A stretch of 64,000 bases of DNA from an uncultured Alphaproteobacteria bacterium (GCA_944392865.1 CALXYD010000002.1:4896-68895), one strand, 5' to 3'. Numbered from the stretch's first letter, positions 10,924 through 63,610 are shown. A program made the numbers and translations. Notes: generated from the sequence alone by a model not told the origin.

Positions 10924-12478
10924 TATCCTTATATATCAACGGGGCAAATCTTTTTAATTCCGTCAAACGATAACCTGTATATGTTCCGAGTAACATAACA
11001 ATAAATAAAATCACCAAATTCAACTCATTAAATGCAAACATAATATGCCGCACGGATTCACTGCTAACCACAAAATATGTAACAACTGCCGTCAAAAACG
11101 TATATAAAATTTCCTTAAGCGTATTCATCGCACCATCCTCTTCCCAGGTAATTGACGCACGCTCAATAATCCACGCCGTAATAATTATCGGGAAAAAGAT
11201 TGCCGAACTGACAATAGTATAATTTAAGCGATACCCGACAACCGTCAGTGCCTGAATCAATAAAATAACAAAAATGACCACAAAAGAGATTCTCGGCACC
11301 AGCAACAGATTAAGTTTTGCCACAACGGCACGCATAACCAACCCCAAAGCAATCATAACCGAAAAACAGATAAGCCCCGGCCAAAATCCCGTTTTAACCA
11401 AAGCCATTGCCAACAACATCGGTGTAAAAGTTCCCATCGTAGACACGCCGATAACATTGCGCATAACCACCACGACCAAAATAGCCAGCGGGAAAATCAT
11501 CAGCCATTTCAGCGTATTTTGCTCCAAAATCGGCAACGTATAGATAGAATACTTGTAACTCATCAGTTTATCATTCGCTTGCGCCCGATGTTCCGCCATT
11601 TTCATCGGAGTCGCAACAGATTTCAAAACCGAAAAAACAACTTTGGAATTTTCACCGCCGCGCACATCAAGCAATGAAACACCGCCGCGCTGAATAATCA
11701 CCCAGTTTTTAGGCAACCCGATTTTAGCCGTATTTAAATCATATAACGCCCATTTTCCATCCAGATAAGCTTCCAACATAATATCCGGCTTATCTGTTTT
11801 TCTGTTCTCCTCAAGCCGGATTGTCCAGGCAATCCGCGCCGGAATACGTTTATAAGCCAAAATCTGAATAACTTTCTCGGCAAATTCTTTTGTTGTATAG
11901 TCCAAAGACAAAATCGGCGTCATCGTCGGTGTCGTTACTTCATGATTAACAGTCAGAATAACTTTCTGAACTTTATCTCCTTTCTGTAATTCGGACAGCT
12001 CCCATATTTTACGCATTTGCCCTTGTTCTTCTTCGGTCAGAATAGGACGCCGAACCTTATCTTTGGGAAGAAATACCCGGCTGGAATTTTGTGCTCCGTC
12101 ATAAATACTAAGACGATAATAAAGATTTTGCCGTCCTTCCTTGTCTTTCCCGCTCCAAACAACCCTGTTATTCTTCTTATCGCGCGTAACTTCATATCCT
12201 TTAGCGATAATATCCTCGCTTAATATCGTAAACCCGTCTCGGTCATTTGGAACCGCCAGAGAAACCTGCGTATCCTGCCCATTAGCATCAAAAGACACCT
12301 TAGCTTCAACTGTCCATATATCAGTCAATGTTTTAGGAGAAATTGTGAATCCCCAATATTTGACCTTATAATAAATACCATAGCCGGCATAGATTATTGA
12401 CAACACCAATAACAGAGCAAGCGTTTTTCTTACGGTAAAAAATCGACGCAAAGACAACATTATCAAACCAATCCTCAA
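10910..12478 (-). CDS. inactive transglutaminase-like domain fused to a 7-TM module
   Basis: 522 aa with an N-terminal TM helix and a periplasmic domain. The C-terminal multi-TM block contains NVIGVSTMGTFTPMLLAMAL and LLLVPRISFVV, which is typical of the 7TM partner of RimK-like ligases. Confidence 0.75.
   Translation of the reverse strand: MRIGLIMLSLRRFFTVRKTLALLLVLSIIYAGYGIYYKVKYWGFTISPKTLTDIWTVEAKVSFDANGQDTQVSLAVPNDRDGFTILSEDIIAKGYEVTRDKKNNRVVWSGKDKEGRQNLYYRLSIYDGAQNSSRVFLPKDKVRRPILTEEEQGQMRKIWELSELQKGDKVQKVILTVNHEVTTPTMTPILSLDYTTKEFAEKVIQILAYKRIPARIAWTIRLEENRKTDKPDIMLEAYLDGKWALYDLNTAKIGLPKNWVIIQRGGVSLLDVRGGENSKVVFSVLKSVATPMKMAEHRAQANDKLMSYKYSIYTLPILEQNTLKWLMIFPLAILVVVVMRNVIGVSTMGTFTPMLLAMALVKTGFWPGLICFSVMIALGLVMRAVVAKLNLLLVPRISFVVIFVILLIQALTVVGYRLNYTIVSSAIFFPIIITAWIIERASITWEEDGAMNTLKEILYTFLTAVVTYFVVSSESVRHIMFAFNELNLVILFIVMLLGTYTGYRLTELKRFAPLIYKDNENV
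11725..11738 (+). repeat. copy of the GTATTTAAA core (TAGCCGTATTTAAA)
   Basis: Exact 9-mer core, antisense inside the 7TM gene. Confidence 0.8.
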
Positions 12479-13005
12479 TCTAAAGTATACGATGTAGACG
12501 TATCAACCAAAAACCGCCCAGTTAAAATATTTCTGCCGATTAGCCCCTGATAATCAAAACCGGATCTGTCCGCAATGGAAAACACTGCCGTAAATACCTC
12601 ATCACCCATTTTAACATCCATCTTAACCGCCTTGCGTTGCTCATCTTTTCCAACGCGTTTAACTCTGAATGAACGTTCTATTTTCTTTTCAAATAAATGC
12701 TCTTCGCCGGTTTTTCTGTTTTTCAACAAAAAAGACACCCATTTTTCTCCATCTCTTTCAAAATATTCCACATCTTGACAATCAAGCGAAGATGTCGTCG
12801 CACCTGTATCAATTCTGGCAGCAAAAGGCGATTTCATCGGCAAAAAATAAATTGGCTCCACCTCACCGATAATCGGCAAATGAGCTTTCTCAACAACAAC
12901 TTCTTCCGTTGTGCTGACATTATGCACCACCGCGGGAACAATCACTTGTTTAGATTGGCACGCCGACAACGTTAATATTAAAACCAACAAATAAAACTTA
13001 TGCAT
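12475..13005 (-). CDS. retropepsin-like aspartic protease (annotated in databases as ATP-dependent zinc protease, DUF785)
   Basis: Lipoprotein-type signal (LTLSAC), the D-T-G-A motif in ARIDTGATTSSLD, and GLIGRNIL near the C-terminus. It overlaps the next gene by 4 nt. Confidence 0.7.
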   Translation of the reverse strand: MHKFYLLVLILTLSACQSKQVIVPAVVHNVSTTEEVVVEKAHLPIIGEVEPIYFLPMKSPFAARIDTGATTSSLDCQDVEYFERDGEKWVSFLLKNRKTGEEHLFEKKIERSFRVKRVGKDEQRKAVKMDVKMGDEVFTAVFSIADRSGFDYQGLIGRNILTGRFLVDTSTSYTLD

Positions 13006-13111
13006 TATCCTCTATACCTCATCATTCTAAAGAACATTTCAAGATTAACGTTTACATAGCCTTTTTTTAGAGAATTAACATCAACAAAATAACACTAATA
13101 CACAACGAAAA

Positions 13112-13151
13112 CGACAACAGGCGGATGATAAGCCAACCTGTTGCCGTTTTT
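13112..13151. terminator. hairpin terminator downstream of the porin gene
   Basis: Stem CGACAACAGG / CCTGTTGCCG (one mismatch) with a 15-nt loop. A TTTTT run follows on the + strand and a weaker U-tract on the - strand. Confidence 0.5.
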
Positions 13152-13160
13152 ATATGTTAT

Positions 13161-13174
13161 ACAGTGTATTTAAA
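13161..13174 (+). repeat. copy of the ACA-NN-GTATTTAAA word (ACAGTGTATTTAAA)
   Basis: Exact 14-mer, 8 nt beyond the porin stop codon. Confidence 0.9.
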
Positions 13175-13181
13175 TGCTGTA

Positions 13182-14318
13182 TCAGAAAAATACCGTAGCG
13201 CGCAAACTCGTAACCACCCCGACATCCGATTTTGCATTAAGTGCCGGATTTATATAAAATTGAACATCTGGTGTTATGGTCAACATATCGCCAATACCCC
13301 ATGCCCAATAGGCCTCAATAACTTGTTCCGCGTTATGTGCAAGCTTTTCGCCAACTGCTTTTTCATCAATTTTATTATAAGCGTATGCCACTCCGATTTG
13401 GTCTAATGGATTCCTGCCCAACGGATTGTTATACACGCCGCCGACAACCCAGGACTGCCTGATTTCCTCAACACTTCCGCTTACTTCGTTAAGCCGTGCA
13501 AAAATACTGAACTTATCTCCGATATTTTGAGACAAATTTAACGACCAACCGTTTGTTGTTTCGGGTTGTTCCTTAACACCAGGCTGATTATAAACCATCA
13601 ATGAAATCTCGCTCTCTCCCCACCCTTTAATCGTCGGTGTATAAGAAAAATACCCGAATGTCGTGTAATGCTCTTCCCCTAAATGGTTAAACCGGATACT
13701 CGGAGCATCAACATTCGTCGCATCTAAGCCGCCCAAAACAATATTCCACTCATCATTCGGTTCTATTTGCACATATCCGCCCAAACCGCCGGAAGAATAC
13801 GAAGCAGACGCATTCTGTGCCAAAGCATCATTCAAAAAATTGACTTGCTGATTAGAATCATAAGCCGTCCCGTCAAAATTATACAACGAATATTGCCCGA
13901 CGCCAACGGTTAGCCAATCAAATTTTCCGCCAAACTGATAGGTATAATATAACTCATTAAATTCCGTATCATTATCGGTATAATCGTTTATCCCGGTAAC
14001 ATAACCGGAATTACCGGCTATATCTGCCGCAGAATGCCCGCCGTAGCGCACAATGGAATAGGCAAAATTCAACACCCCCGTCCCATTGCTATTATCAACC
14101 ATTGTCCATGCAAACTCCGGATAAATATATGCCTGCACCGCATTGCTTTTTCCGTTCGGACTTGTTCGTTGTGCTAAAACAGAAACATCTATATTATAAT
14201 CAAAACCGTATTGCTTATTTAATCTGTTCTTAAAATCTTGATAAAATCCGTCCGCATTCGCTTCAGCCGCCAGCAAAAACAAACACCAGCTCATTAACCC
14301 AATCCTTTTATACTTCAT
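13182..14318 (-). CDS. outer-membrane beta-barrel porin (possibly OprB-like carbohydrate porin)
   Basis: Signal peptide (LFLLAAEANA), alternating beta-strand pattern and a C-terminal LRATVFF typical of OMP barrels. The family assignment is tentative. Confidence 0.6.
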   Translation of the reverse strand: MKYKRIGLMSWCLFLLAAEANADGFYQDFKNRLNKQYGFDYNIDVSVLAQRTSPNGKSNAVQAYIYPEFAWTMVDNSNGTGVLNFAYSIVRYGGHSAADIAGNSGYVTGINDYTDNDTEFNELYYTYQFGGKFDWLTVGVGQYSLYNFDGTAYDSNQQVNFLNDALAQNASASYSSGGLGGYVQIEPNDEWNIVLGGLDATNVDAPSIRFNHLGEEHYTTFGYFSYTPTIKGWGESEISLMVYNQPGVKEQPETTNGWSLNLSQNIGDKFSIFARLNEVSGSVEEIRQSWVVGGVYNNPLGRNPLDQIGVAYAYNKIDEKAVGEKLAHNAEQVIEAYWAWGIGDMLTITPDVQFYINPALNAKSDVGVVTSLRATVFF

Positions 14319-14452
14319 TTCCTCGCCTTTCGGTTACATTAAATACCCGATAGGATATAACCATTGAAAACACGAAAAAAAGGGGATTAGCAAAAAAACA
14401 CTTGAACAGAAAAGGGAAATGCAGTAGCCTGCTTTATAGCAAAGGATAAAAA

Positions 14453-15133: not shown

Positions 15134-15145
15134 GAGGCATACTAA

Positions 15146-16204: not shown

Positions 16205-16207
16205 ACA

Positions 16208-16645: not shown

Positions 16646-16657
16646 AAAAGCTAAAAT

Positions 16658-17764: not shown

Positions 17765-17776
17765 TGCTAAAAATCC

Positions 17777-22249: not shown

Positions 22250-22567
22250 CTAGTCATCGCTTTCAGTTTCCTGCACCAACACATCTTCTTCCACCAAAAC
22301 CGGCTGCGCGGCAGAAGAATCAATCGGCGCCACTTCAACCCCGGGGTCGCCCGGCAAAGGCTGCATATCTGCCGAATCGGCATTGCCTGGCGCATTATTT
22401 CCCGCCGGTGTCGCCACCGCAGACGCACTATAAGTTTCAATAATCATCACACCGCCGTTATCCGCCGCATCTGCGGCATCAGCCGTTCCGCTCGCCCCGG
22501 CAATAGCCTGGCTGACAATCAACGCCAACGCCGATATAGCCAAAAGCCCCATAAACAATCTGTTCAT
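22250..22567 (-). CDS. small acidic secreted protein (Ala/Asp/Pro-rich)
   Basis: I trimmed the start to MNRLFMGLLAISALALIVSQAIA, a signal peptide preceded by GGAGG 8 nt upstream. G+C is visibly higher than in the flanks. I recognise no family. Confidence 0.5.
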   Translation of the reverse strand: MNRLFMGLLAISALALIVSQAIAGASGTADAADAADNGGVMIIETYSASAVATPAGNNAPGNADSADMQPLPGDPGVEVAPIDSSAAQPVLVEEDVLVQETESDD

Positions 22568-22658
22568 CTGTTTATCCTCCAAAATTAAAACGATACGCCG
22601 GAGATATAATCGCCGCCCGCCTTATTTCAAGCCCTCTCCCAATACCTCCCCATCTAAA

Positions 22659-22672
22659 ACGCCGTATTTAAA
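22659..22672 (+). repeat. copy of the GTATTTAAA core (ACGCCGTATTTAAA)
   Basis: Exact core that overlaps the U-tract side of the terminator of the 201-aa OMP gene. Confidence 0.8.
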
Positions 22673-22700
22673 ACGCAAAAACGGCAGGATAACCCGCCGT
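22671..22700 (-). terminator. terminator of the 201-aa OMP gene
   Basis: On the - strand: stem ACGGCGGG / CCTGCCGT (one mismatch), loop TTAT, then TTTTTGCGTTTT. Confidence 0.55.
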
Positions 22701-22720
22701 TTCGCCTATACTTTTCCGTG

Positions 22721-23326
22721 TCAGAAATAAATCCTGATACCTCCCGTGAAGATTCCTCCCCACTTCGTCTCGCCCACGCCATCTATCGGGATGGACTGAT
22801 AGCGCGCCTCGCCAAAGAGCGCAAATCTGGATGATAAATTAACCGAACCGCTAAGCCCGACACCCAAATAATACCGCCCATAATACGCGTGCCCGTGGTG
22901 GTCGTAATAATGTCCGCCGTGGAACCACTCCTCTTGGAGCGCATATCCCGTATGCGCCATTAACGACAGCCGCCCGATTTCCGACGCCAACAAATTCACG
23001 CCAAAATTAACGCCAAGCGTTACCGTAGACAGCGTATTTGTTTCCGTCGCGCCATAACCGTCGTCCCAAACCGAGTTAATAGAAAGGTAACTTCCCTCTA
23101 ACTCTCCGACAAACAGACCGGCTTCCATACCTATCCGGACATTAAATGTCGGAGAAGCCAAATCATTAACTAACCCGGCACCAGCACCAAACCCGGCGTA
23201 AAAATTCACCCCGTTTCCGAATAATCCATCGTCATACCGGCAGAAATACTGGGCTTGCGCACTCTGAATACCCATACTGCAGATGACAGCTATCGCCGCC
23301 ACTACCGCAAAAAATCTTTTTTTCAT
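22721..23326 (-). CDS. small outer-membrane beta-barrel protein (OmpX/OmpW-like size class)
   Basis: Signal peptide MKKRFFAVVAAIAVICSMGIQSAQA, Gly/aromatic-rich alternating strands and a terminal GGIRIYF. Confidence 0.7.
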   Translation of the reverse strand: MKKRFFAVVAAIAVICSMGIQSAQAQYFCRYDDGLFGNGVNFYAGFGAGAGLVNDLASPTFNVRIGMEAGLFVGELEGSYLSINSVWDDGYGATETNTLSTVTLGVNFGVNLLASEIGRLSLMAHTGYALQEEWFHGGHYYDHHGHAYYGRYYLGVGLSGSVNLSSRFALFGEARYQSIPIDGVGETKWGGIFTGGIRIYF

Positions 23327-23420
23327 ATATAAGTAATTTTAGTTCTGCCTATAAATATACCAGATTTTTCCCCTTTGTGCAACAAAAAAATACTTCCCCG
23401 ATTCCCCCCTAAAATACCAC

Positions 23421-23468
23421 AAAAAAAAGCAAGGGGAGCGAGAGCCGCTGCCCTCAATCTTCCCTTGC
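23421..23468 (-). terminator. terminator of OMP paralogue A
   Basis: On the - strand: GCAAGGGA ... TCCCCTTGC stem (one bulge) followed by TTTTTTTT. Confidence 0.6.
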
Positions 23469-23483
23469 TTTCTTCTGTGACCC

Positions 23484-24512
23484 TTACTTAGCGACGGTGC
23501 TGTTGCGCCACAACGAAAATGGAACGGCTATTGTCGCCCATACGTTGTGGTTCCAGTCCGCCATGGCGTTGCCGACGAGGCGGGTGTAAGAATACCCCAG
23601 CGACATCTCAAAATATGGCATACGCCATTTAATGAATGCGCCAGGCCCTACGCCCATCCCGTCATGGGTAACCCAGGATTCCTTATCGGAAACCGGGCGC
23701 TTGGTATCGGTTTGATACCACATAGCGTCCACCATGGCACCAACCCAAAGATTCTTGTCATCTTTTTGATTGTTCCACAGCTTCACGCCAAGCCCCATCT
23801 GGGCACCGCCGGTGAAGTAAGACTTGCCAGGGTTATTGGCGGTTTCGGGATAATAAGCCCATCCAATTTTGCCTTGGATGTATCCCCCAAAAAGCCTTCC
23901 CCAACGAGCCAATTCCAAGCCCAAATACGGAGTCCACTCTCCGGAGGACGAGTAGTTAATGCCCACCACCGGCGCAAGCTGCCAGTAGTAAGTATTTTTA
24001 GCCTCAAGAACAATGGGATTCTCTCTGTTCTCTTGGCCGTTCTCGTCCACCATATAAGCTACTCGCCCAGTGCGAGCCTCACCACCGGCGATGACATTTT
24101 CCGAAACCGTCGTCTTGTCTGACGAAGTTCGGATTTTGTCATCTAACGCCTCACGGCGGGCTATTTCCGCAGGCGACAGCTCAGAAGCCGTATAAACGAA
24201 CTTCTGTAGCTTGCGCGCCTCCTTGTCCTTCAGACCAATAAAGGTCATCTGAACAAAAAGGCTGTCGCCCTCAATCCATTGGTCTTCTGCCAAAAGGCAG
24301 ACAGTCTCAGAGGATTGTTTCTCTAGGAACTGACCAATAGCCTGCAGGCTATCTGTTCCCAGTTCAACAACTTCCACCTCGGCGGAACCGAACAACTCGG
24401 CCTTCACCTCAGTGGAAAGGTTAACTACTCGCTGCGCACTCGCTGTTGTTGCGCAGAAAACCAAAGCCACGCATGTCGCAATGACTCTGGCAAAAGCTTT
24501 CAAATTTGCCAT
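23484..24512 (-). CDS. secreted/outer-membrane protein, paralogue A (variable N-domain plus beta-rich C-domain)
   Basis: Signal peptide MANLKAFARVIATCVALVFCATTASAQ is almost identical to that of paralogue B. The C-terminal half is rich in Gly/Trp/Tyr. G+C is higher than in neighbouring genes. Confidence 0.65.
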   Translation of the reverse strand: MANLKAFARVIATCVALVFCATTASAQRVVNLSTEVKAELFGSAEVEVVELGTDSLQAIGQFLEKQSSETVCLLAEDQWIEGDSLFVQMTFIGLKDKEARKLQKFVYTASELSPAEIARREALDDKIRTSSDKTTVSENVIAGGEARTGRVAYMVDENGQENRENPIVLEAKNTYYWQLAPVVGINYSSSGEWTPYLGLELARWGRLFGGYIQGKIGWAYYPETANNPGKSYFTGGAQMGLGVKLWNNQKDDKNLWVGAMVDAMWYQTDTKRPVSDKESWVTHDGMGVGPGAFIKWRMPYFEMSLGYSYTRLVGNAMADWNHNVWATIAVPFSLWRNSTVAK

Positions 24513-24810
24513 TTTTGTATGAATTTAATTGTTTACGGCAATTTGAAAAACCTCAGAGTATTACCAGACGTGACCTCGCAAGTAAATCACATTCATAATA
24601 ACCTCTAAAATAATTCAAACCGCCAGAATAATTTTTTATCAACTTTACTATAACATCTTTTTCTTGTCTTTTCAATCATTTTTTTTGTGGATTCCGTCCA
24701 TATACCCCCGCTTTTGACTCATTTTTTTAAACAAATAGACTTTAAACCTGCCGATTCGCTCGCCTTTCCGCCCGATCCGCCCGCAAAATTCAATCCGTTC
24801 GCCTCTCATC
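24432..24810 (-). repeat. direct repeat copy A (~379 bp): upstream region, promoter, uORF and signal-peptide codons
   Basis: Aligns with 25733..26106 at a constant offset of 1301 at the ATG. I count 2 mismatches in the 81 nt of CDS and ~94% identity in the distal 210 nt. The uORF segment is more diverged. Confidence 0.85.
24647..24675 (-). promoter_or_regulatory. sigma70-type promoter of paralogue A (TTGAAA-N17-TATAGT)
   Basis: The - strand reads TTGAAA agacaagaaaaagatgt TATAGT. The same hexamers and spacing are conserved in copy B. Confidence 0.5.
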
Positions 24811-24860
24811 AATACTCATTTGCCACCAATACATCATACCCGACTCGCGACATAACTCCT

Positions 24861-24909
24861 CAAAAAAAGAAACAGCAAACTTTTGAGGGTTGCTCAAAGT
24901 TTGCTGTTT
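24861..24909 (-). terminator. rho-independent terminator of paralogue B
   Basis: Perfect 14-bp stem AAACAGCAAACTTT / AAAGTTTGCTGTTT with a 12-nt loop, followed on the - strand by CTTTTTTT. Confidence 0.8.
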
Positions 24910-24943
24910 TCAATTTGTGATCCCTTGCCACACCGCCAGAGGG

Positions 24944-25813
24944 CTAGAAAGTCTTCATGACCTTGAACATTGCACTTCCGCGCAAGTCCTTGATCAAATT
25001 TTGACCTGCATTGCCCTCATTGTAAGGCATGATTAAGCCGGCGGCGTTAAAGCCTAAGCGCCAGCCATTCCGACCAACACCCCACATACCCTCTATATAG
25101 AGACCTCCTCCGAAGCCCCATTTATGAGAGTATACAGTTGCCTTGTCCGAATCGCTCTGGCTGTATCCCAGCAACCCTTTCAGACCTACTGCAAAGTAGT
25201 CGTCAAAGTCCTGAGACTTCCACACCTTAAATCCGGCATTTGCCTGGAAGTAAGGCATAGAATAACGGTCATTGGCATACTCCGCTTTACTTGGATACCA
25301 TGCCTCCGTCCAGCCAATTCCGGCGCCAACCAGCCAATTCCGAGTTTCAAACCCGATATTAGCTTCAACCATCGGCGCGACGCCTTTTTCTCCAGCCGAT
25401 GCACCAGCGGCAACTGATACGGTCGTTTTCCGTATCTTATCGCCGTTAGCTTTTTGCCGGTCGGCGTTAAGCGCCTCCATGCGGCCTTCGCGGACAGCGC
25501 GGAACTCTTCCGGCGTCATGTCGCGAAGTCTTTTCACGGGCACCATAATGGTATCCCTGAAAAGACGCGGCTCTCCGTCAAAGAGCGCAATTCTCTTGCA
25601 TTCAATGACGTGATACTTGCCGTCTTTCTCCCCGAGTTTCCTCAGGTCGTAAAGGCAAGTATCTTGGGGGTTGCTTACTAAGTATTCCCTGATCTGGTCG
25701 TCAGACCAACGAATACTTTGTTTGATTACTCTCTGCGCACTCGCTGTTGTTGCGCAGAAAACCAAAGCCACGCATGTCGCAATGACTCTGGAAAAAGCTT
25801 TCAAATCTGCCAT
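24944..25813 (-). CDS. secreted/outer-membrane beta-barrel protein, paralogue B
   Basis: Signal peptide MADLKAFSRVIATCVALVFCATTASAQ, a beta-rich C-terminal half and a terminal MFKVMKTF. Confidence 0.65.
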   Translation of the reverse strand: MADLKAFSRVIATCVALVFCATTASAQRVIKQSIRWSDDQIREYLVSNPQDTCLYDLRKLGEKDGKYHVIECKRIALFDGEPRLFRDTIMVPVKRLRDMTPEEFRAVREGRMEALNADRQKANGDKIRKTTVSVAAGASAGEKGVAPMVEANIGFETRNWLVGAGIGWTEAWYPSKAEYANDRYSMPYFQANAGFKVWKSQDFDDYFAVGLKGLLGYSQSDSDKATVYSHKWGFGGGLYIEGMWGVGRNGWRLGFNAAGLIMPYNEGNAGQNLIKDLRGSAMFKVMKTF

Positions 25814-51750: not shown

Positions 51751-52324
51751 CTTCCAAAACTTTCACCAATTCAACAACATTTCTGCGCAATTTGTTTTTA
51801 CCGACACCTGTATCAATAATAATATCAGCTTTCATTTTCTTAACTTCCCGCGGCATCTGCTGCTTGTTTATTTTATCAAAATCATCCGCCGATATATTAT
51901 CACGACGCATAACCCTCTGTTTCTGCGTTTCATAATCGGTATCCGCTAAAACAACGCTATAACAAAATTTATCCCATTTTAATTCAAAAAGCAACGCAAC
52001 ATCAACAAAAACTATACCTTTATTAACTCTTTTACGAATAATACGCCGCATTTTTTGCGTCAAAAACGGATGTATTAAAGCCTCAAGCTCTCTTAATTTG
52101 GCCGGATTATCAAAGACCAACTCTCTTAATTTCTTTTTATCAAAAACATTTCCAACAAAAACTTCCGGAAATTTTTTTCGGATAACTGCTAAAAAATCAG
52201 CTCTGTAATATAGATACCTTACCCATTTATCTATATCGTAAACCAAATACCCCAAAGAACGCAAAATATCGGAAATAGTCGTTTTCCCGCAACCGATAGA
52301 CCCTGTAATTGCAACCAACTTCAT
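51737..52324 (-). CDS. coaE: dephospho-CoA kinase
   Basis: I trimmed the start to MKLVAITGSIGCGKTT (P-loop), with GAGG ~8 nt upstream. It overlaps the dnaQ start by 14 nt. Confidence 0.88.
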   Translation of the reverse strand: MKLVAITGSIGCGKTTISDILRSLGYLVYDIDKWVRYLYYRADFLAVIRKKFPEVFVGNVFDKKKLRELVFDNPAKLRELEALIHPFLTQKMRRIIRKRVNKGIVFVDVALLFELKWDKFCYSVVLADTDYETQKQRVMRRDNISADDFDKINKQQMPREVKKMKADIIIDTGVGKNKLRRNVVELVKVLEDGEY

Positions 52325-52477
52325 AACCCGCCTCAAAAATCTCTTATACACATCTTGAAACAACCCTGTGCATAATTATATCATTTAAAAACAACACCTT
52401 CATTTTATCACCACTGCCCCAAAACAGAGCAACCACTTATAAACAAGTTCATAAAATATTCCCCCGCCCTTGCCTTT

Positions 52478-52631
52478 TGTGAATAACTCATCATATCCAC
52501 AAAAAATAAACTTTCATCAATAAATTGATTTTAAAACAACTTTTTGGAGTCGTGCACAACCTTTTAAACACCTCCCCTGAAATCTGGATAAAAACGGTAT
52601 AAAATTTAATCCACATAATCTGTCAGGATAA
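52478..52631. promoter_or_regulatory. cluster of DnaA-box-like 9-mers (candidate oriC or DnaA-regulated rho leader)
   Basis: TGTGAATAA (52478), ATATCCACA (52493), TCTGGATAA (52583) and TAATCCACA (52607) are each one mismatch from TTATCCACA/TGTGGATAA. TCAGGATAA (52623) has two mismatches. A very AT-rich stretch (52620-52800) follows. Confidence 0.45.
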
Positions 52632-55068: not shown

Positions 55069-55180
55069 ACCTCTTTTCTTACGATAATTCTTTTTGAGTT
55101 AATTTTTTTATAAGAGATATAAATTTCTGTTGCGATTCTTTAATTTTTGCGTTTAGCTATAAAAAAAGAAGGATGGTAAA

Positions 55181-56512
55181 ATGTCAGACTCTACAATTTA
55201 TGCTCTATCAACTGTTTTTGGAAAATCAGGCGTTGCTGTAATTCGTATTTCAGGCAATGAGGTTTTGCATATTTTATCAAAAATGACGGATATAAATATT
55301 GCAACGATAAAGCCGCGTCGCGCCTATTTCTGCACAATAACCAGAAAAGAAAGCTCAGAACCGTTGGATAAAGCAATCGTTTTATATTTTAAATCGCCGC
55401 ACTCTTATACAGGGGAAGATATTGCTGAAATTCAATGTCACGGTTCAAAGGCTGTTTTAAACAGTGTATTTAAAGAACTTGGCATGTTTGAGAATGTTCG
55501 TTTGGCTGAACCGGGAGAGTTTTCTAAGCGTTCTTTTTATAATCACAAAATGGATTTAACCGAAGCCGATGGATTGGCTGATTTAATTGATGCAGAAACC
55601 TCCGAACAACAAAAATATGCTTTAAGGCAAATGGGTGGAAATTTAAAAAATCTATACTCCTCTTGGCGAAACGATTTAGTTAAGATTTTATCCTATCTTG
55701 AGGCTTATATTGATTTTCCAGAGGAAAATATACCGGAAAATCTGTATGCAGATATTTTAAACACTGTATTTAAAGTGAAATGTGATATAGAAGAACATCT
55801 AAAAGGAAATAACGTTAACGAACGTCTGAGAAATGGTTTCCGCATTGTTATTGCCGGCAAAACAAACGCTGGAAAATCAAGTTTGGTAAATGCCCTGATA
55901 AAAAGAAACGCTGTTATTGTTTCAGATATAGAGGGAACAACCAGAGATTCCATAGACATTAGTTTGGATATAGGCGGATACCCTGTTGTAATAACCGATA
56001 CGGCCGGAATTCGTATAACGAATAATCCGATTGAGCAACAGGGAATAGATATTGCTCTGCAAAAAATAGAAGAAGCTGATATCGTCATAGCTTTATATGA
56101 TGCTTCTAACGAAAACACCGATTTCTCTTATGTAAAAAATAACAATATCCTGTATGTTGCAAATAAAATTGATAAGCTTACGGATGAACAAAAGGAAAAA
56201 TTAGAGAAAAAAAAGCATATTCTAATATCTGCCAAATTTAATAAAGGTATTGACAGGTTGATAAACGATATTTTGGATATAATCAAAGACTGTTTTGCTA
56301 CATCTTCAAACTGCCTGATTACGCGTACTCGATATAGAAGAGCTCTTGAAGCCTGTTTGGAAAATCTTTCAGTATTTTCCTTAGATAAAGAAATAGAACT
56401 AGCCGCCGAGGATATAAGATTAGCCTGCCGGCAAATTGGTAAAATTACGGGCACGGTTGAAGTTGCCGAAGTTTTAGATAATATCTTTGGCAATTTTTGT
56501 ATCGGAAAATAA
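55181..56512 (+). CDS. mnmE: tRNA modification GTPase MnmE
   Basis: TIYALSTVFGKSGVAVIRISG N-terminus, G-domain GKTNAGKSSL / DTAGIR, and the C-terminal CIGK motif. Confidence 0.95.
   Translation: MSDSTIYALSTVFGKSGVAVIRISGNEVLHILSKMTDINIATIKPRRAYFCTITRKESSEPLDKAIVLYFKSPHSYTGEDIAEIQCHGSKAVLNSVFKELGMFENVRLAEPGEFSKRSFYNHKMDLTEADGLADLIDAETSEQQKYALRQMGGNLKNLYSSWRNDLVKILSYLEAYIDFPEENIPENLYADILNTVFKVKCDIEEHLKGNNVNERLRNGFRIVIAGKTNAGKSSLVNALIKRNAVIVSDIEGTTRDSIDISLDIGGYPVVITDTAGIRITNNPIEQQGIDIALQKIEEADIVIALYDASNENTDFSYVKNNNILYVANKIDKLTDEQKEKLEKKKHILISAKFNKGIDRLINDILDIIKDCFATSSNCLITRTRYRRALEACLENLSVFSLDKEIELAAEDIRLACRQIGKITGTVEVAEVLDNIFGNFCIGK
55455..55475 (+). repeat. two-unit copy TTTTAAACAGTGTATTTAAAG inside mnmE
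   Basis: Contains the exact 14-mer. It encodes V-L-N-S-V-F-K. Confidence 0.9.
55755..55775 (+). repeat. two-unit copy TTTTAAACACTGTATTTAAAG inside mnmE
   Basis: Identical to the 55455 copy at 20 of 21 positions, exactly 300 nt downstream and in the same frame (I-L-N-T-V-F-K). Confidence 0.9.
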
Positions 56513-56530
56513 TATTATTACATTATAAAT

Positions 56531-56544
56531 ACAATGTATTTAAA
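56531..56544 (+). repeat. copy ACAATGTATTTAAA in the mnmE/orphan-gene spacer
   Basis: Part of the palindrome TAAATACA-A-TGTATTTA (56526-56542). It abuts the orphan gene's stop codon. Confidence 0.9.
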
Positions 56545-57873
56545 TTATATGTCTTTGTATTTGCATAAGATAAAGTGCTTTTCTATTTGTTCAATAAATG
56601 AGCTGCCTTCACCTATATATGCGGCAATGTTTGGTATATACAAATCAGGATTCTCTACTAAAATATAATCAAGAATATCACAGTATTTGTAAAAATTATT
56701 ATAGTTTAGATTTGTATTATTTAAGCATAAACGCTTAAGAATTATAATTATATAATTTAAAATATTTGTTCGGTCAAAACAGAAAAAAGAATCTGTATGA
56801 AATAATCTTATTAAGAATTGTATTTCTTTTCCACACACTTCAATATCATCAGTAGGCTCTATAAACGAAAAAATATCGTCAATAAAATATTTCCGAATGA
56901 AGCGATGATTAAATATTTGCCTATCCTTATTAGTGTGAAGCAAATAATTGCAAAGTGTGAGGCAAAATAATTTATGTTCAGGAGCGCTTTGTGCAGTAAT
57001 TGTAATTAAATCGAAAAGATAATAATAATCTTCTTTCAAACAATTTGGTTTTGAAAGTGTATTCAGTACTAAATTTTGTAATTCATCAGGAGTGATGTTT
57101 ACATGCATATATTTTGTATTTATTATTTTTTCTATTTCGTTTTTGTAAGTGCGTAGGACAATATTAGCGCTAAACTCTTTTTGTAACAACAAATACGCTA
57201 CAGTATTTAATATTTTCCAATATAAATATATTGTGTGATTGGTAAGATTTAATATACGGTTTAATATCAGAACAAATTTATCTATGGATATTTCTCTGTT
57301 CATTAAAGCAGACAAGACAGAATCAATCCAACATAAATAAGTATTTTCGTTATCGTGAGTTTCTTTGTTGTATTCAAACAGGCATATTTTTCTAAATAAA
57401 TTTTTTATAAGCATATTATAATTATTTTTATATATAAGGTTTTTTATAATGAAATTTTGGTAAATGCGGACAATAAGGAAATCCTGACTTATATATGTTG
57501 TTTCACGTGAAACTTTATCAAGATAATCACCTATTTTTTCGCAATCATATCTAGTTAGGTATCTCTTTAATTTACTTTGTGGTAATGTTGATAATTTTAC
57601 AAGTTCGAAAAGATTTCGCTTTTTCAGAATCGTATTATCCTCAACAGAATTATAAAAGTTTTCAATTATCTTCTCAATATCTTTTTTGCTTAAATCTGAA
57701 ACATTAACGCGTAAAATATTTTCGGTTAATGTCAGTTCATACGCATTATCAAAATATTTTTTTATAAGCAAATTATTCATGGTTTGATAAAATTTTTTAT
57801 TATCAGCATCGCTCATTATCTTACTTATAAGTTTATGACGTTTTTCTAAGATAGTGTTTAAATCGTAATCCAT
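56545..57873 (-). CDS. orphan hypothetical protein, very AT-rich, all-helical composition
   Basis: 442-aa uninterrupted ORF rich in Asn/Ile/Lys/Tyr/Leu. I recognise no motif. It is inserted between mnmE and mnmG and contains a parS-like site. Confidence 0.5.
   Translation of the reverse strand: MDYDLNTILEKRHKLISKIMSDADNKKFYQTMNNLLIKKYFDNAYELTLTENILRVNVSDLSKKDIEKIIENFYNSVEDNTILKKRNLFELVKLSTLPQSKLKRYLTRYDCEKIGDYLDKVSRETTYISQDFLIVRIYQNFIIKNLIYKNNYNMLIKNLFRKICLFEYNKETHDNENTYLCWIDSVLSALMNREISIDKFVLILNRILNLTNHTIYLYWKILNTVAYLLLQKEFSANIVLRTYKNEIEKIINTKYMHVNITPDELQNLVLNTLSKPNCLKEDYYYLFDLITITAQSAPEHKLFCLTLCNYLLHTNKDRQIFNHRFIRKYFIDDIFSFIEPTDDIEVCGKEIQFLIRLFHTDSFFCFDRTNILNYIIIILKRLCLNNTNLNYNNFYKYCDILDYILVENPDLYIPNIAAYIGEGSSFIEQIEKHFILCKYKDI
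57499..57514. promoter_or_regulatory. parS site (TGTTTCACGTGAAACT, 15/16 match)
   Basis: Matches the canonical parS palindrome TGTTNCACGTGAAACA except at the last base. It lies inside the orphan gene and encodes VSRET. Confidence 0.8.
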
Positions 57874-57970
57874 TTTTATTACCTCACAAATTAAGAGAAT
57901 ATAATATAGAATACAATTAAAAATATGTTTGTCAACAGAAGATTCATACGAATTGAATAAAAGATAAATC

Positions 57971-57998
57971 TTGCAAATTATTTTGACCGGACTAATAT
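57971..57998 (+). promoter_or_regulatory. candidate mnmG promoter (TTGCAA-N16-TAATAT)
   Basis: The hexamers lie ~35 nt upstream of the mnmG ATG. Confidence 0.35.
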
Positions 57999-58030
57999 CA
58001 CTAAGTTCTTAATTTAAAAGGATTAAGCAG

Positions 58031-59875
58031 ATGGAGTATGATGTTATAGTTGTTGGTGGTGGACACGCCGGATGTGAAGCTTGTGCTGCAGCTGCACGAA
58101 TGGGAGTGCGGACAGCTCTTATTACGCATAATATAAAAACAATAGGTGAGATGTCATGTAATCCGGCCATCGGAGGTTTAGGCAAAGGGCATCTTGTTAG
58201 AGAGATAGACGCCTTGGATGGGGTTATGGGAAAAGTCATCGATAGAGCGGGTATACAATTCCGTATGCTTAATGCATCCAAAGGACCGGCTGTTAGAGGT
58301 CCCCGCGCTCAAGCTGATAGAGAACTCTATAAGAAATATATGTTGGAAGCGCTAAACGAATATAAAAATTTGGATATTATCGAAGGTGCTGTTGAACACT
58401 TGATAATTAAAAATCAAAAAATTGAAGGAATCCGCTTATCAAATGGTGTTGAATATTATGCAGCTTCAGTTGTGCTGACAACGGGAACTTTCTTAAATGG
58501 TGTTATGTTCGTAGGACATGAACAAACAGTAGGTGGGCGTATCAACGACGTTACTTGTACAGGGATAACAGCGTATTTAAAAAATGCAGGATTGAAAGTC
58601 GGACGGCTTAAAACAGGAACACCGGCAAGATTAGATGGAAAGACAATAAATTGGGATTGTTTAGAAGAACAATCCGGAGATATCCATCCTCAACCTTTCT
58701 CATTTTTATCCGGTAAAATTAAACAGCCGCAGATAAAATGCCATATAACATACACAAACGAATCGACACATAAAATCATTCGGGATAACTTTTCCAAATG
58801 TGCTTTGTTTTCTGGGTTAATTACAGGCGTTGGACCTCGTTATTGCCCGAGTATAGAAGATAAACTGGTTAAATTCGCTGACCGGACGAGTCATCAAATA
58901 TTTTTGGAACCGGAAGGGTATAATACAAATGTTGTTTATCCGAATGGAATATCCACATCTCTACCGGCGGATGTGCAGGAGCAATTTATCCATACAATAA
59001 AAGGGCTGGAAAACGTAAAAATTCTCCGTTACGCATATGCGATTGAATATGATTATGTTGACCCGATGGAGTTGAATCATTGCTTGAAAACAAAAAAAGT
59101 GGATGGTTTATATTTGGCCGGTCAAATCAATGGAACGACCGGTTATGAGGAAGCTGCAGCTCAAGGACTTGTAGCCGGTGCTAATGCGGCATTATCTGCA
59201 CAAAAGAGCAGTAAAGAATTTTTTATTGATAGGAGTGAAGGTTACATTGGCGTTATGATTGATGATTTGATAACAAAAGGAATCGATGAACCTTATCGTA
59301 TGTTTACTTCCCGCTCTGAATATCGATTATACCTTCGTGCTGATAATGCGGATTTACGGCTAACAGAAAAAGGATATGAAATTGGTTGTGTATCGCAGTA
59401 TAGATACAGTGTATTTAAAATGAAAAAAGAACAATTGGATACTTGCCGGCAAATATCTAAAAATACATATATTTTAGCAAAAGAAATTGATGACTTCAGT
59501 TTGCCGTTGAAAAAAGAAAACAATAAAAAAACTGTTTTTGAATTGCTTGGATATAACGATGTTTCACGTGAAACAATTAACAACTTGTGCCCGGCTTTAG
59601 CGGAGGTAACAGATGAAGTCTATGAACAACTTTGCATAGAATCTAAATATGCCGGTTATATGAAAAGGCAAAATAACGATATCGAAACATTTAAAAAAGA
59701 TGAAAATATAAAAATTAAATCTAATCTTGATTATACAAAAATTGGCGGCTTATCAAGAGAAGTTGTTGCTAAATTGGAAAAGGTAAGACCCTCAACGATC
59801 GGTGAGGCTTCACGCATTCCGGGGATAACGCCGGCCGCAATTATCGCTGTTTTGAGCTATATGAAAAACAATTAA
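58031..59875 (+). CDS. mnmG: tRNA uridine-5-carboxymethylaminomethyl synthesis enzyme MnmG
   Basis: [18 protein letters not shown] motif, [23 protein letters not shown], and full length of 614 aa. Confidence 0.97.
58568..58581 (+). repeat. copy ACAGCGTATTTAAA inside mnmG
   Basis: Identical to the 14-mer at 22235. Confidence 0.9.
59406..59419 (+). repeat. copy ACAGTGTATTTAAA inside mnmG
   Basis: Exact 14-mer, encoding Y-S-V-F-K. Confidence 0.9.
59560..59575. promoter_or_regulatory. parS site (TGTTTCACGTGAAACA, perfect)
   Basis: Perfect 16-bp canonical parS palindrome within the 3-prime part of mnmG. Confidence 0.9.
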
Positions 59876-59941
59876 AAAATCTATGTTTATAACTGACTTT
59901 TTTTGATACAAAAAACACACGGATAAAATAATATCCAAAAT

Positions 59942-60559
59942 ATGATGAATGTTATCGAAAAATGTAAGGTTTCACGTGAAACAGTTGATGGGTTAAAAAC
60001 TTACCAACAACTGGTTTTAGAATGGAATCATCGGTTCAATTTAATTAGCAAACAATCAGAAGCGGTAATTTGGGAAAGGCATATTCTCGATTCGTTGCAA
60101 TTATGCGAATATATAAAAGCTCAAGATGAAATTTTGCTTGATTTAGGTGCTGGTGCCGGTTTCCCTGGGATTGTAATAGCAATAGCCGCTAAGCAGCTTT
60201 TTCCAAAATTAACTATACACCTGGTTGAAAGTATAGCTAAAAAAGTTTCGTTTCTTAATATGGTTAAGGATACGCTTGAATTGAAGGTGATAGTTCACCA
60301 TGATAGAATCGAAAATATAAAGCTAAAAAATGTTGATATCATTACTTCACGAGCACTCGCATCACTTCCAAAATTATTGGAATATTCAATTCCTTTTTGC
60401 AACAAAAATACAAAAATGTTATTCTTAAAAGGGGAAAAATGGGAAAGTGAAGTAAGGGAGGCTCTTCAACTTAGAAATTTTGAATTTACAGCCATATCCA
60501 GCCAAACAGATGAAAAGGGAAAAATACTATATATAAATAAATTGGGAGATGAAATTTAA
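59942..60559 (+). CDS. rsmG: 16S rRNA (guanine527-N7)-methyltransferase RsmG
   Basis: VSRETVDGLKTYQQLVLEWNHRFNLIS N-terminus, SAM motif DLGAGAGFPG, and TSRA. Confidence 0.9.
   Translation: MMNVIEKCKVSRETVDGLKTYQQLVLEWNHRFNLISKQSEAVIWERHILDSLQLCEYIKAQDEILLDLGAGAGFPGIVIAIAAKQLFPKLTIHLVESIAKKVSFLNMVKDTLELKVIVHHDRIENIKLKNVDIITSRALASLPKLLEYSIPFCNKNTKMLFLKGEKWESEVREALQLRNFEFTAISSQTDEKGKILYINKLGDEI
59968..59983. promoter_or_regulatory. parS site (GGTTTCACGTGAAACA, 15/16 match)
   Basis: One mismatch at the first base. It lies in the first codons of rsmG. Confidence 0.8.
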
Positions 60560-61329: not shown

Positions 61330-61330
61330 A

Positions 61331-62233
61331 ATGTCGGTAAATAAAAAACATGGTTTAGGTAGAGGTTTGGAAGCGCTACTTGGAGATGACGACCTGAATT
61401 TTAATTTAGATAACATTAGTGCCGGCGAATCTCTCTCTGATGGTATAAAAAAAATAAGTGTTAATGATTTGGAACCAAGCCAATACCAACCACGTAAAGA
61501 TTTTAACCCGGAAGCTTTAGATGCTTTGGTTAAATCAATTAAAGAAAAGGGTGTGTTACAGCCGCTTATAGTCCGCCCGAGAGATAGTGGAAAATACGAA
61601 ATAATAGCAGGCGAAAGACGGTGGAGAGCTTCAAAACTTGCAGGAATAGCCGAAGTTCCAGTCATTGAAAAAGATTTGAACAATCAAGAAATTTTAGAAG
61701 TAGCTCTTGTTGAAAACTTACTTCGTGAAAATTTATCAGCCATAGAAGAAGCTGAAGGCTTTAATCGGTTAATTACCGAATTCTCGCATACACATGAAGC
61801 CGTTTCTGAAATAGTCGGAAAATCGAGAAGTTATATAACTAATGCCTTGAGATTATTAAGCCTTCCCGCGAGTATTCAAGAAATGATAAAAAATAACACT
61901 CTTAGCGCCGGACACGCCCGTGCGCTAGTCGGTTTGGATAATTCCGAAGAGATTGCTCAAAAAATTATTGCGCGGGGGTTAAACGTTAGGCAAACCGAAG
62001 AACTGGTTAATAATATAAAAAATCAGGCAATAAATCAGATAAGAAAAAACATGAAAAAAGATCCCAGCCTTAAAGAATTGGAAAAAGGACTTACAAAAAG
62101 TATTGGTTTAAAAGTAAAAATAAATAGCGGAGATGAAAATAAAGGCAAGGTTACTATAGAATATAAAAGTCCGGCCGAATTGGAACAAATCTTATCTTTG
62201 CTTGAAAAAAATAAGCAAGAAACTCTTTCATAG
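61331..62233 (+). CDS. parB: chromosome partitioning protein ParB
   Basis: GLGRGLEALLG, QPRKDF, the GERRWRA arginine patch, and an HTH. Confidence 0.93.
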   Translation: MSVNKKHGLGRGLEALLGDDDLNFNLDNISAGESLSDGIKKISVNDLEPSQYQPRKDFNPEALDALVKSIKEKGVLQPLIVRPRDSGKYEIIAGERRWRASKLAGIAEVPVIEKDLNNQEILEVALVENLLRENLSAIEEAEGFNRLITEFSHTHEAVSEIVGKSRSYITNALRLLSLPASIQEMIKNNTLSAGHARALVGLDNSEEIAQKIIARGLNVRQTEELVNNIKNQAINQIRKNMKKDPSLKELEKGLTKSIGLKVKINSGDENKGKVTIEYKSPAELEQILSLLEKNKQETLS

Positions 62234-62282
62234 AGCGCAGTAAATAAAATTCTTTAATAAGCAAGATAAAGACGATAATTTA

Positions 62283-62320
62283 ACCGTAGAGCGATATTTA
62301 TCGTTCTGCGGTATATTTAT
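62283..62320 (+). terminator. candidate terminator of parB
   Basis: 14-bp stem ACCGTAGAGCGATA / TATCGTTCTGCGGT (two G-U pairs) followed by an AT-rich, T-containing tail. Confidence 0.5.
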
Positions 62321-62408
62321 ATAAAATTAGAAAAAATAACCACCAGAAAGGCTAAAAAACGGCGAGATGTTCAAACTATTGATTTTACAAGAATATTTTC
62401 TGCTTTAA

Positions 62409-62422
62409 CAATGTATTTAAAA
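62409..62422 (+). repeat. copy ACAATGTATTTAAA overlapping the cca stop codon
   Basis: Exact 14-mer variant. Coordinates may be off by 1 nt because my count disagrees with the ORF track here. Confidence 0.85.
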
Positions 62423-63610
62423 GAATTCTTTATATTTGTTTATGAGTTCTTGCTCAGATAAGCAACAACCTTGCTCATACCAATACTTTTTTAATATATC
62501 CATATAAAAACCAATCATTTTGGGTTCTGCTCCCAAAGAAATAAGTTTTTTCCCATTAAGCGGAAATTCTGGAATGTTAATCTTATACAGTGTATTTAAA
62601 ACATTCTTTATAGAAACAATATCAGGATTATCCAAATTTAAGCTTAACCATTTATCACAGCAGACATCCTTGCCATAGCGAAATAAAGATTTATTTATAG
62701 AAACGCTGTCTTTAAAATTGTGTAAGGATAAACGAGCTCTTGTTAATTCAAGCAACGTATTTTTTTCTTGCTTATTTAACTTAAAAATATCCGCAAGTCT
62801 GCCGGCTCTTTTACTATCGGGAGCAAAAAGAACATAAATTCTGCGAATGATACTTTTCTGAATGTTGAGTTTTTGAACAAGTTTAATTAACTTATCAAGA
62901 TTATTTAATGATGAAGGAGCGGCAACCAAAAAATCTAAAATTCCGTTGTCAAAAATCAATTTAAGCGTATCAACGGCGTAAGGTGCCATAATTATTTTAA
63001 ACAGCTCGTCTTTAATTTTTTCAGTTGAAACATGTCTAAGCAACTCTTTGTTGTCAATGCAGGCTTTTAATGACTTTTTATCTATTTGTCGGCCGAAAAT
63101 GGCACAAAAACGGAAAAAACGCATAATACGGATATAATCACGTTCAATGGTTTCTTGGGGAAGCCCTATAAATTTAATAACGCCTTTTTCCAAATCTTTT
63201 ATGCCGTTAAAATAATCAAACACGTTACCTTTTTCATCTGCGTAAACTGCATTGATAGTTAAATCTCGTTTAGCGGCATCGCTTTTCCACTCGTCCTTGC
63301 CGGTATCTTCTTCGGAACACAAAGAAGTAACCTTAAAAAAGCTGTTATTTATTAAAACGCCGGTGGTAAAAAATTGAATTCCGATTGGAACACAACGGAT
63401 TCCCTCATCCATGCACATATCCGAAAATTCAGCTGGCGACATATCGGTTACCAGATCAATATCTTGGCGATTAAATCCGGCAATGGCATCTCTGACGGCG
63501 CCGCCGACAAAACGCAAAACACCGCCATGTTTTTCAACCATTTGGAACAACTGTAATATATCATTATTAGTTATAAGTTTTTGCGGAGCAATATATTCAG
63601 GATGAAACAT
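62417..63610 (-). CDS. cca: CCA-adding enzyme / poly(A) polymerase-family tRNA nucleotidyltransferase
   Basis: RFVGGAVRDAIAG and DIDLVT class-II nucleotidyltransferase motifs, plus RDLTINA. Confidence 0.85.
   Translation of the reverse strand: MFHPEYIAPQKLITNNDILQLFQMVEKHGGVLRFVGGAVRDAIAGFNRQDIDLVTDMSPAEFSDMCMDEGIRCVPIGIQFFTTGVLINNSFFKVTSLCSEEDTGKDEWKSDAAKRDLTINAVYADEKGNVFDYFNGIKDLEKGVIKFIGLPQETIERDYIRIMRFFRFCAIFGRQIDKKSLKACIDNKELLRHVSTEKIKDELFKIIMAPYAVDTLKLIFDNGILDFLVAAPSSLNNLDKLIKLVQKLNIQKSIIRRIYVLFAPDSKRAGRLADIFKLNKQEKNTLLELTRARLSLHNFKDSVSINKSLFRYGKDVCCDKWLSLNLDNPDIVSIKNVLNTLYKINIPEFPLNGKKLISLGAEPKMIGFYMDILKKYWYEQGCCLSEQELINKYKEFF
62587..62600 (+). repeat. copy ACAGTGTATTTAAA, antisense inside cca
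   Basis: Exact 14-mer. Confidence 0.9.

Follow-up and report, generated by a model that had tools for sequence, protein, structure and literature searches.

A strand-exclusive 17-bp word around the origin region of an uncultured gut alphaproteobacterium, and its candidate functions

Why should a bacterial chromosome carry the same nine-letter word over and over again, and only on one of its strands? The question is raised by a stretch of 64,000 nucleotides (the window; CALXYD010000002.1:4896-68895 of assembly GCA_944392865.1) from an uncultured gut alphaproteobacterium, the window proteins of which have exact matches in gut metagenome assemblies. Related metagenome-assembled genomes are labeled by NCBI as 'uncultured Alphaproteobacteria bacterium', 'Acetobacter sp. 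46_36', or 'uncultured Rickettsiales bacterium UMGS1453'; such genomes presumably belong to the order RF32 of GTDB. An earlier note on this DNA had singled out the word, GTATTTAAA, and proposed that it is a selected recognition sequence. The analysis described here, which covered ∼82 kb of the window species and two loci in relatives (the mnmE/mnmG side and the rpsA side), strongly supports this proposal: the word occupies orthologous positions in ∼13 species, codon usage within it points to selection at the level of DNA, and it is missing outside the clade. Judged from its sequence properties, the word is probably a cis element to which a putative protein binds.

Counts, anatomy, and conservation of the word

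An exact count of GTATTTAAA in the window yielded 13 copies on the plus and none on the minus strand, as claimed before; 12 of the 13 starts given were correct, and the remaining one (62414) is actually 62413. The previous guess of about one chance copy per strand per 64 kb was also sound, as Markov models of orders 1-5 predict 0.8-1.5 copies on the plus strand and 1.0-1.3 for the reverse complement, and dinucleotide shuffles of the window contained a mean of 2.0 (both strands summed; maximum 8). The longer form ACANNGTATTTAAA occurred 10 times (versus 0.01 expected), starting with ACAGTG (four copies), ACAATG (three), ACAGCG (two), or ACACTG (one); the earlier tally of 10 ACA-NN copies, with 14-mers present four, three, and two times, was reproduced. 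AC-R-N-Y-GTATTTAAA is the better description (the extended word; search pattern ACRNYGTATTTAAA), because it fits 12 of the 13 window copies, versus 0.024 expected, and again none on the minus strand. Compared with the 12 exact copies, one-mismatch variants of the extended word were nearly nil (one on each strand, that on the minus strand being accounted for by the palindrome at 56536, whose mirror half it is), which is why the word behaves in an all-or-none manner, as do parS or the DNA uptake sequence (DUS). The copy at 11730, which has no AC-RNY arm and no conserved counterpart in relatives, is probably the one expected by chance.

A compositional artifact was ruled out: shuffled and Markov-modeled sequences give ∼1 copy per strand, and the local skew favors the opposite strand, the plus strand being C-rich around six of the copies, which would promote the reverse complement of the word. 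Between 1679 and 49666 of the window (left replichore), all 24 words resembling TTATCCACA (at most one mismatch) are also found on the plus strand, for which the very strong skew in G/C and A/T is entirely responsible. Strand bias by itself is therefore weak evidence in this genome, and a composition control is needed.

The consensus of 61 copies from the window and eight relatives is W-W-A-C-R-N-Y-GTATTTAAA-R, with no conservation outside it. Written out, the site reads W-W-A-C-R-N-Y-G-T-A-T-T-T-A-A-A-R; it spans ∼17 bp, is asymmetric, and contains roughly 26 bits of information. Its inner ACRNYGT is its own reverse complement, and the extension ATTTAAA is present on one side only; as a dyad-symmetric core with a one-sided extension, the site therefore has a direction. 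The right arm (GTATTTAAA) is invariant and the left arm is its loose mirror (TTTAAAC, ATAAC, GATAC, or TATAC). Copies in tandem are spaced by 13 bp. Past ∼17 nt, the flanks of the copies are unrelated to each other, 6 of the 12 extended copies in the window lie inside genes, and no hairpin can be folded; a miniature inverted-repeat transposable element or a repetitive extragenic palindrome was ruled out on these grounds, in keeping with the view that it is a word rather than a mobile element. Its placement was as described previously, that is, sense in mnmE and mnmG, antisense in the seven-transmembrane (7TM) transglutaminase gene and in cca, and otherwise in spacers at the 3′-ends of genes. 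All intergenic copies are located in convergent or tandem 3′-end spacers, most of them at 0-50 nt from a minus-strand stop codon, and divergent promoter spacers carry none.

Across ∼13 related species (330 kb of clade DNA), the extended word was found 78 times in the orientation of the window's plus strand and not once in the opposite orientation; in 1.35 Mb of loci from outside the clade, it was not found at all. Seven minus-strand copies of the nine-letter word exist in clade loci, all of them without the AC-RNY arm. Copies at orthologous positions and on the same strand were observed in mnmE, in the spacer between mnmE and orph442 (a clade-restricted gene described below), in mnmG (two copies), in the parB/cca spacer, and in cca, and this positional conservation spans species with MnmG 74-82% and the orph442 product 33-54% identical. 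More distant relatives, reached via orph442 (33-39% identity), also keep both positions and strand. In the convergent mnmE/orph442 and parB/cca spacers, the word is the only block conserved across species, and mnmE, orph442, and cca end in stop codons that overlap the word or directly adjoin it. On the rpsA side, relatives with RpsA 91-93% identical have a tandem pair past the OprB stop codon and, 1-4 nt away from where a small open reading frame (ORF) stops, a further copy. Relatives just outside the group lack the word (L136, MnmG 58% identical; L241 and L249, RpsA 85-86%).

Copies are also gained. On the rpsA side, extra copies specific to a lineage were seen within adh_short and the 7TM gene as well as between genes for orphan envelope proteins; because the lineage-specific gains known from the clade, at least eight, all obey the same orientation, the common orientation is a real constraint and due to neither inheritance nor chance. 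Even strains differ: the 13-bp unit TGTATTTAAACAA after the porin gene is present twice in six other strains (L003-L008, at ∼2765-2791) and once in the window, so that the copy number of the site is polymorphic at the strain level. The tandem pair after the OprB stop also exists in the relatives L240 and L242. One relative, L248 (RpsA 91% identical), is rearranged (2613-2722, 6185-6255, and 11683-11755). There, the OprB-RuvA-RuvB-thioesterase block is inverted, and the block from TyrRS to the cation-efflux gene, which in the window species is right of the origin, now follows rpsA; the breakpoints are in spacers in which the window species has the word, whereas none is present at the junctions newly formed. 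A scan of JGI metagenomes with RuvB yielded almost no close relatives having usable flanks.

Whether the in-gene copies are conserved for the sake of the protein was addressed with a codon test restricted to alignment columns with an invariant, degenerate amino acid. The same codon was used in all species at only 9.8% (mnmG) and 13% (mnmE) of such columns. The motif codons are invariant nonetheless (ATT TTA AAC ACT GTA TTT AAA in mnmE; AGA TAC xxT GTA TTT in mnmG), whereas ∼90% of the neighboring synonymous sites vary, and the tyrosine within the motif is always encoded by TAC, the rare codon, in these A+T-rich genomes. In mnmG, the amino acid of the enclosed codon shifts (S/T/G/A) and R-N-T is retained. 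Because the word is invariant amid varying synonymous sites, and because the enclosed codon changes its amino acid but keeps R-N-Y, selection acts on the DNA; the codon test excludes that the in-gene copies owe their conservation to the protein. The mnmE site at 55461 exists only where V-L-N, the sequence in other species, became V-F-K, which indicates that this site was gained or lost via an amino acid change. The parS sites behave alike with respect to in-gene conservation at the DNA level: CACGTGAAAC of the mnmG parS is the longest invariant run in the alignment of mnmG from nine species.

Table 1. Sites of the word and features of the origin region, in window coordinates.
Feature	Position	Strand	Remarks
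Bare 9-mer	11730..11738	+	without AC-RNY arm; inside 7TM-transglutaminase gene; not kept in L240 or L242
Site ACAGTGTATTTAAA	13161..13174	+	8 nt downstream of OprB porin stop (porin gene on minus strand)
Site ACGGCGTATTTAAA	22189..22202	+	first of three in convergent rpsA/small-secreted-ORF spacer; overlaps terminator stem of small ORF
Site ACAATGTATTTAAA	22202..22215	+	13 bp past ACGGCGTATTTAAA copy
Site ACAGCGTATTTAAA	22235..22248	+	1 nt off stop of small secreted ORF (22250-22582, minus strand); position kept in L240 and L242
Site ACGCCGTATTTAAA	22659..22672	+	terminator T-tail of gene for 201-aa outer-membrane-protein (OMP)-like protein; window species only
Candidate oriC	52344..52615		six DnaA-box-like 9-mers (at most one mismatch); coaE-dnaQ/rho spacer, at GC-skew sign change
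mnmE site, sense	55461..55474	+	codons AAC AGT GTA TTT AAA; only window species, L159, and L246
mnmE site, sense	55761..55774	+	21 nt ATTTTAAACACTGTATTTAAA invariant in 7/8 species
mnmE-stop/orph442-stop spacer site	56531..56544	+	fills most of 32-bp convergent spacer; perfect 17-bp palindrome TAAATACAATGTATTTA here
orph442	56545..57873	-	clade-restricted 442-aa protein; 25% G+C gene between mnmE and mnmG; carries one parS
parS sites	57499-57514, 59560-59575, 59968-59983		inside orph442, mnmG, and rsmG, respectively
mnmG site, sense	58568..58581	+	codon phase 2; kept in 8/9 species
mnmG site, sense	59406..59419	+	149 bp upstream of parS; AGA TAC xxT GTA TTT invariant in 9 species
parB/cca convergent spacer site	62408..62421	+	cca stop (TAA on minus strand) inside word
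cca site, antisense	62587..62600	+	175 nt before cca stop; kept in relatives

The origin region, the left group, and orph442

The cumulative GC skew of the window turns at ∼52.5-53 kb, and a skew switch is present at the matching position in the gene order of eight related species; together with its DnaA-box-like sequences, this makes the region at 52344-52615 a candidate oriC. Neither the extended nor the bare word occurs within it. When orientation was compared with the skew, all copies in the window were on the plus strand on both sides of the turn. Left of oriC, copies are found at −39 kb and −30 kb; right of it, seven copies at +2.9 to +10.1 kb bracket all three parS sites. Even with 7.4 kb of left and ∼10 kb of right flank added, extended copies were confined to three places (∼13.2, 22.2-22.7, and 55.4-62.6 kb), the ∼18 kb of added flanks containing none, which corresponds to a density of ∼0.15 per kb over 82 kb. 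The empty stretch between the copy groups measures 33 kb, for which the probability by chance is ∼0.007. As oriC lies between the two groups, their common polarity is odd; neither this position of oriC nor the dyad-symmetric core ACRNYGT was mentioned in the earlier note.

The composition of the DNA changes at the same place. G+C amounts to 40-48% left of ∼52.4 kb and to 25-38% right of it (the right side was followed to ∼73.6 kb in L001 and L244), and the replication skew is much weaker right of oriC than left. A chimeric assembly at this step was ruled out, as long contigs from many samples span both sides; synteny across the ∼52.4-kb join holds in at least eight species. Close to oriC, coaE contains a 33-bp tandem repeat (52067-52132; 1.9 copies, 84% match). 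Far to the left, a 274-aa ORF (7123-7947, plus strand) encodes the DEAD domain of a DEAD-box helicase but not the C-terminal helicase domain. The gene, possibly a truncated one, is called identically in another strain, L243.

Neighbors of the left group of copies are envelope genes encoding signal peptides, namely, those for OprB, a small secreted protein, an OMP-like protein, and two paralogous orphans. At 22250-25813, the minus strand carries consecutive orphan genes for secreted or outer-membrane proteins that evolve fast, comprising the small ORF, the 201-aa OMP-like protein (which ends in F), and two paralogues of 342 and 289 aa (29% identity). L240 and L242 carry different proteins in place of these orphans. 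When paralogues of these orphans were sought, only proteins 43-100% identical to the query were obtained, none of them obviously paralogous.

On the other side of oriC, orph442 is present in every motif-bearing relative and missing from L136. It evolves fast: its product is 33-54% identical where MnmG is 74-82% identical. No match was found in Pfam, NCBIfam, or among PDB sequences. The predicted fold (AlphaFold; predicted local distance difference test 86, predicted template modeling score 0.70) is an all-α solenoid of ∼20 helices, for which PDB and BFVD returned only generic, nonsignificant matches of the ARM/HEAT/importin type; mTERF was absent among the 50 best PDB matches listed. The isoelectric point of the protein is 7.5, and that of its homologues is 8.8-9.2. 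Helical-repeat proteins such as TALE and mTERF can read asymmetric DNA. On the grounds of co-occurrence and adjacency, orph442 is considered, speculatively, as the protein that might bind the word.

Candidate functions of the sites

Its palindromic core and information content of ∼26 bits make it likely that the site is recognized as duplex DNA. A putative clade-specific, double-stranded-DNA-binding protein, probably a dimer, would dock onto it with extra contacts on one side, and the asymmetry of the site would render each bound complex directional. Around parS beside oriC, selection keeps the sites in place and pointing one way, and a second, less stable set is located in the 3′-end spacers of envelope-protein genes 30-40 kb across oriC. 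The role that fits best would be that of a directional anchor or boundary of the origin/partition region beside the ParB-parS complex. An architectural or partition-accessory function of the sites, as directional elements of the origin region, is suggested only tentatively. Of the four functions considered in the earlier note (uptake signal, nucleoid or segregation site, polar signal, and methylation or restriction target), a nucleoid or segregation site is the one most compatible with the data. A more specific version, in which the co-oriented arrays spanning the origin/partition region are a new kind of chromosomal landmark and orph442, encoded in their midst, reads them as one-way boundaries or anchors for machinery of the ParB/SMC type or for transcription, is doubtful; if true, it would constitute a bacterial counterpart of orientation-dependent insulators, with a polarity independent of the direction of replication.

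Several points weigh against a role at the origin. The binding protein is only putative. The left set is located 30-40 kb off oriC beside envelope genes, turns over between species, and fits an origin or partition role poorly. One orientation across oriC and parS fits no known mechanism of segregation or chromosome organization. The sites might be distributed genome-wide instead of being origin-proximal, the view being one of ∼82 kb and two loci in relatives. Lastly, that every intergenic copy is in a 3′-end spacer would also be explained by a role related to transcription.

Such a role is the essence of the main rival explanation, a polar transcription roadblock or factor-dependent terminator. 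A bound protein, acting like mitochondrial mTERF and possibly being orph442, would halt leftward RNA polymerase and thereby stop transcription of the minus-strand genes for OprB, the small ORF, p201, orph442, and cca as well as read-through into convergent plus-strand genes. Apart from the exclusive location of intergenic copies in nondivergent spacers, mostly close to minus-strand stops, it would account for the cca stop codon within the word, for the 32-bp mnmE/orph442 spacer having no hairpin terminator, for the copies in mnmE and mnmG being antisense to such read-through, and for a helical-repeat protein confined to motif-bearing genomes. However, plus-strand genes need terminators too, yet no opposite copy follows any of them in 330 kb; the conserved copy within cca would cut short the transcript of that very gene; hairpin terminators are already in place at rpsA, parB, the small ORF, and p201; and the fold of orph442 offers, as described above, no specific link to mTERF. 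A roadblock is rather unlikely. Improbable, too, is a signal for DNA uptake or recombination drive, of the kind of DUS or the uptake signal sequence (USS), the copies of which would be spread by a competence receptor preferring the word, by biased uptake, and by gene conversion. The exact, all-or-none nature of the word, its presence in 3′-end spacers and coding frames, the tandem duplication polymorphic among strains, the lineage-specific gains, and the fast-evolving envelope genes adjoining it would all be expected of such a signal, whereas the single orientation (78:0) would not, DUS and USS being about as frequent on one strand as on the other. Their density is ∼1 per kb, far above that of the word in the 82 kb covered; the word in addition is significantly clustered, with its 33-kb gap and empty flanks, and has no likeness to either in sequence. 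The uptake candidate of the earlier note is weakened accordingly. That comEC, dprA, pilQ, and a gene for a DUS-binding pilin are all absent from the 64-kb window is a weak point, as the window is only part of the genome.

Uniform orientation irrespective of the direction of replication could also reflect an enzyme, be it a recombinase or a nuclease, for which only pairs of the word in inverse orientation are substrates, so that one direction is safe. Type III restriction, which needs head-to-head sites, is an example, and the EcoP15I sites of phage T7 are uniformly oriented; another is Rci acting on its asymmetric sfx sites, which also combine one conserved with one loose arm. Two breakpoints in L248 fall into spacers that bear the word in the window species, but the new junctions are without it, the 3-bp center is too short for strand exchange by a tyrosine recombinase, and no recombinase or restriction gene is present within the window. 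As this idea would explain the orientation but not the existence, conservation, or fixed places of the copies, it is considered quite improbable. Very unlikely is an element acting at the level of RNA on plus-strand transcripts, for example, a processing or protein-binding signal. Strand specificity and the several copies in or just past the plus-strand genes mnmE, mnmG, rpsA, and parB would agree with it; the copies at 13166, 22664, and 62592 have no plus-strand gene to carry them, the dyad core (R pairing with Y about the center) fits recognition of duplex DNA, Rfam returned no matches in the window at gathering thresholds, and no stable fold is possible because the arms leave a loop of only 1-3 nt. 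An asymmetric, strand-exclusive word in both coding and noncoding DNA might finally be a replication-oriented polar signal, such as FtsK orienting polar sequences (KOPS) or architecture imparting sequences, Chi, or a fork barrier of the Ter type. This is extremely unlikely, since oriC (at ∼52.5 kb, its skew switch being kept in eight species) lies between the groups and orientation does not change there. Forks do pass the left group, because the skew is strongly negative on both its sides, and one of the groups would face normal forks whichever direction were blocked. The KOPS/Chi candidate is refuted by the missing switch, oriC being inside the interval of 11725-62600 over which the earlier note had reported the word. 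A conserved, over-represented word of 26 bits is not plausibly a target of methylation or restriction.

Comparison with known systems

The statement that the word matches none of the consensus sequences of the DnaA box, CtrA, parS, dif, the Neisseria DUS, and the Pasteurellaceae USS was borne out by motif scans. The word is not a DnaA box (TTATCCACA): standard boxes are present at 52344-52615, and its reverse complement matches only six of nine letters by eye. Nor is it a CtrA site, as its TTAA elements are 9 nt apart instead of 7 and TTAA-N7-TTAAC has no match in the window. The dif site comprises 28 bp, with two 11-bp arms around a 6-bp center, and is present as a single copy at the terminus; no dif core or XerD arm was found in the window, and the word has a 3-bp center and many copies near the origin, so that dif/Xer was ruled out. 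The consensus sequences of IHF, KOPS, and Chi were likewise rejected for the word in the window. The literature contained only incidental strings of the sequence and nothing useful on the lineage. When viral contigs were scanned with the 14-mer and a tandem-pair pattern, scattered chance matches and an unrelated AT-rich giant ORF were obtained. One IMG/VR contig (3300011114_000224; L266 4432-4479, ∼50% G+C) contains four unrelated tandem 13-bp units, GTATTTAAATGCC; this array is probably a coincidence, the search pattern having imposed the 13-bp period.

Among systems that the word resembles in part is parS, the site of ParB (TGTTTCACGTGAAACA). Both are rich in information, all-or-none, present in few copies near oriC, and conserved at the DNA level inside housekeeping genes. 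But parS is a full palindrome without direction and of unrelated sequence, whereas the word is asymmetric and co-oriented, and has a second group 30-40 kb off beside envelope genes; it shares no half-site with the true parS sites at 57499, 59560, and 59968, which rules out identity. The site of MatP, matS (GTGACRNYGTCAC), has the central ACRNYGT dyad in common with the word and is also a dispersed site marking one region of the chromosome. Its flanks differ, it is symmetric and located at the terminus (the enterobacterial Ter macrodomain), and MatP is confined to some Gammaproteobacteria; with no matS match in the window and only the inner ACRNYGT shared, this identity was ruled out as well.

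DUS of Neisseria and USS of Pasteurellaceae consist, as does the word, of an exact 9-12-nt sequence with a weaker extension, which is found both within genes and in 3′-end spacers and is retained at orthologous positions among related species. They differ in being present on both strands and fairly evenly spread, and the known uptake consensus sequences (GCCGTCTGAA, AAGTGCGGT, and ACAAGCGGT) were ruled out, each having 0-1 chance matches in the window and none overlapping the word. Ter sites and other polar barriers, including those of mTERF, are asymmetric 15-23-bp sequences in co-oriented arrays within genes and spacers, again like the word, and the proteins bound to them act directionally. 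Ter arrays, however, form two opposed groups around the terminus, whereas the word has one orientation across oriC and a skew context incompatible with fork blocking; no homologue of Tus, RTP, or mTERF was found. The EcoP15I sites of T7 resemble the word in being asymmetric and all on one strand whatever the direction of replication, but there one orientation of a short, neutral word is avoided, whereas the present word is long, conserved, and positively kept.

If the sites are organizers of the origin, they would provide a handle on a chromosomal direction that is encoded independently of replication, and the 17-mer would be a ready bait for the protein in an uncultured gut lineage; if they are distributed genome-wide, they would represent the first strand-exclusive uptake or recombination signal. 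Known words of bacterial chromosomes are either symmetric (parS, matS, and the sites of Noc and SlmA) or polar with respect to replication (KOPS, Chi, and Ter). The word described here fits neither group: it is long, exact, selected as DNA, retained even at the expense of amino acid changes in housekeeping genes, and points in the same direction on both sides of oriC and parS.

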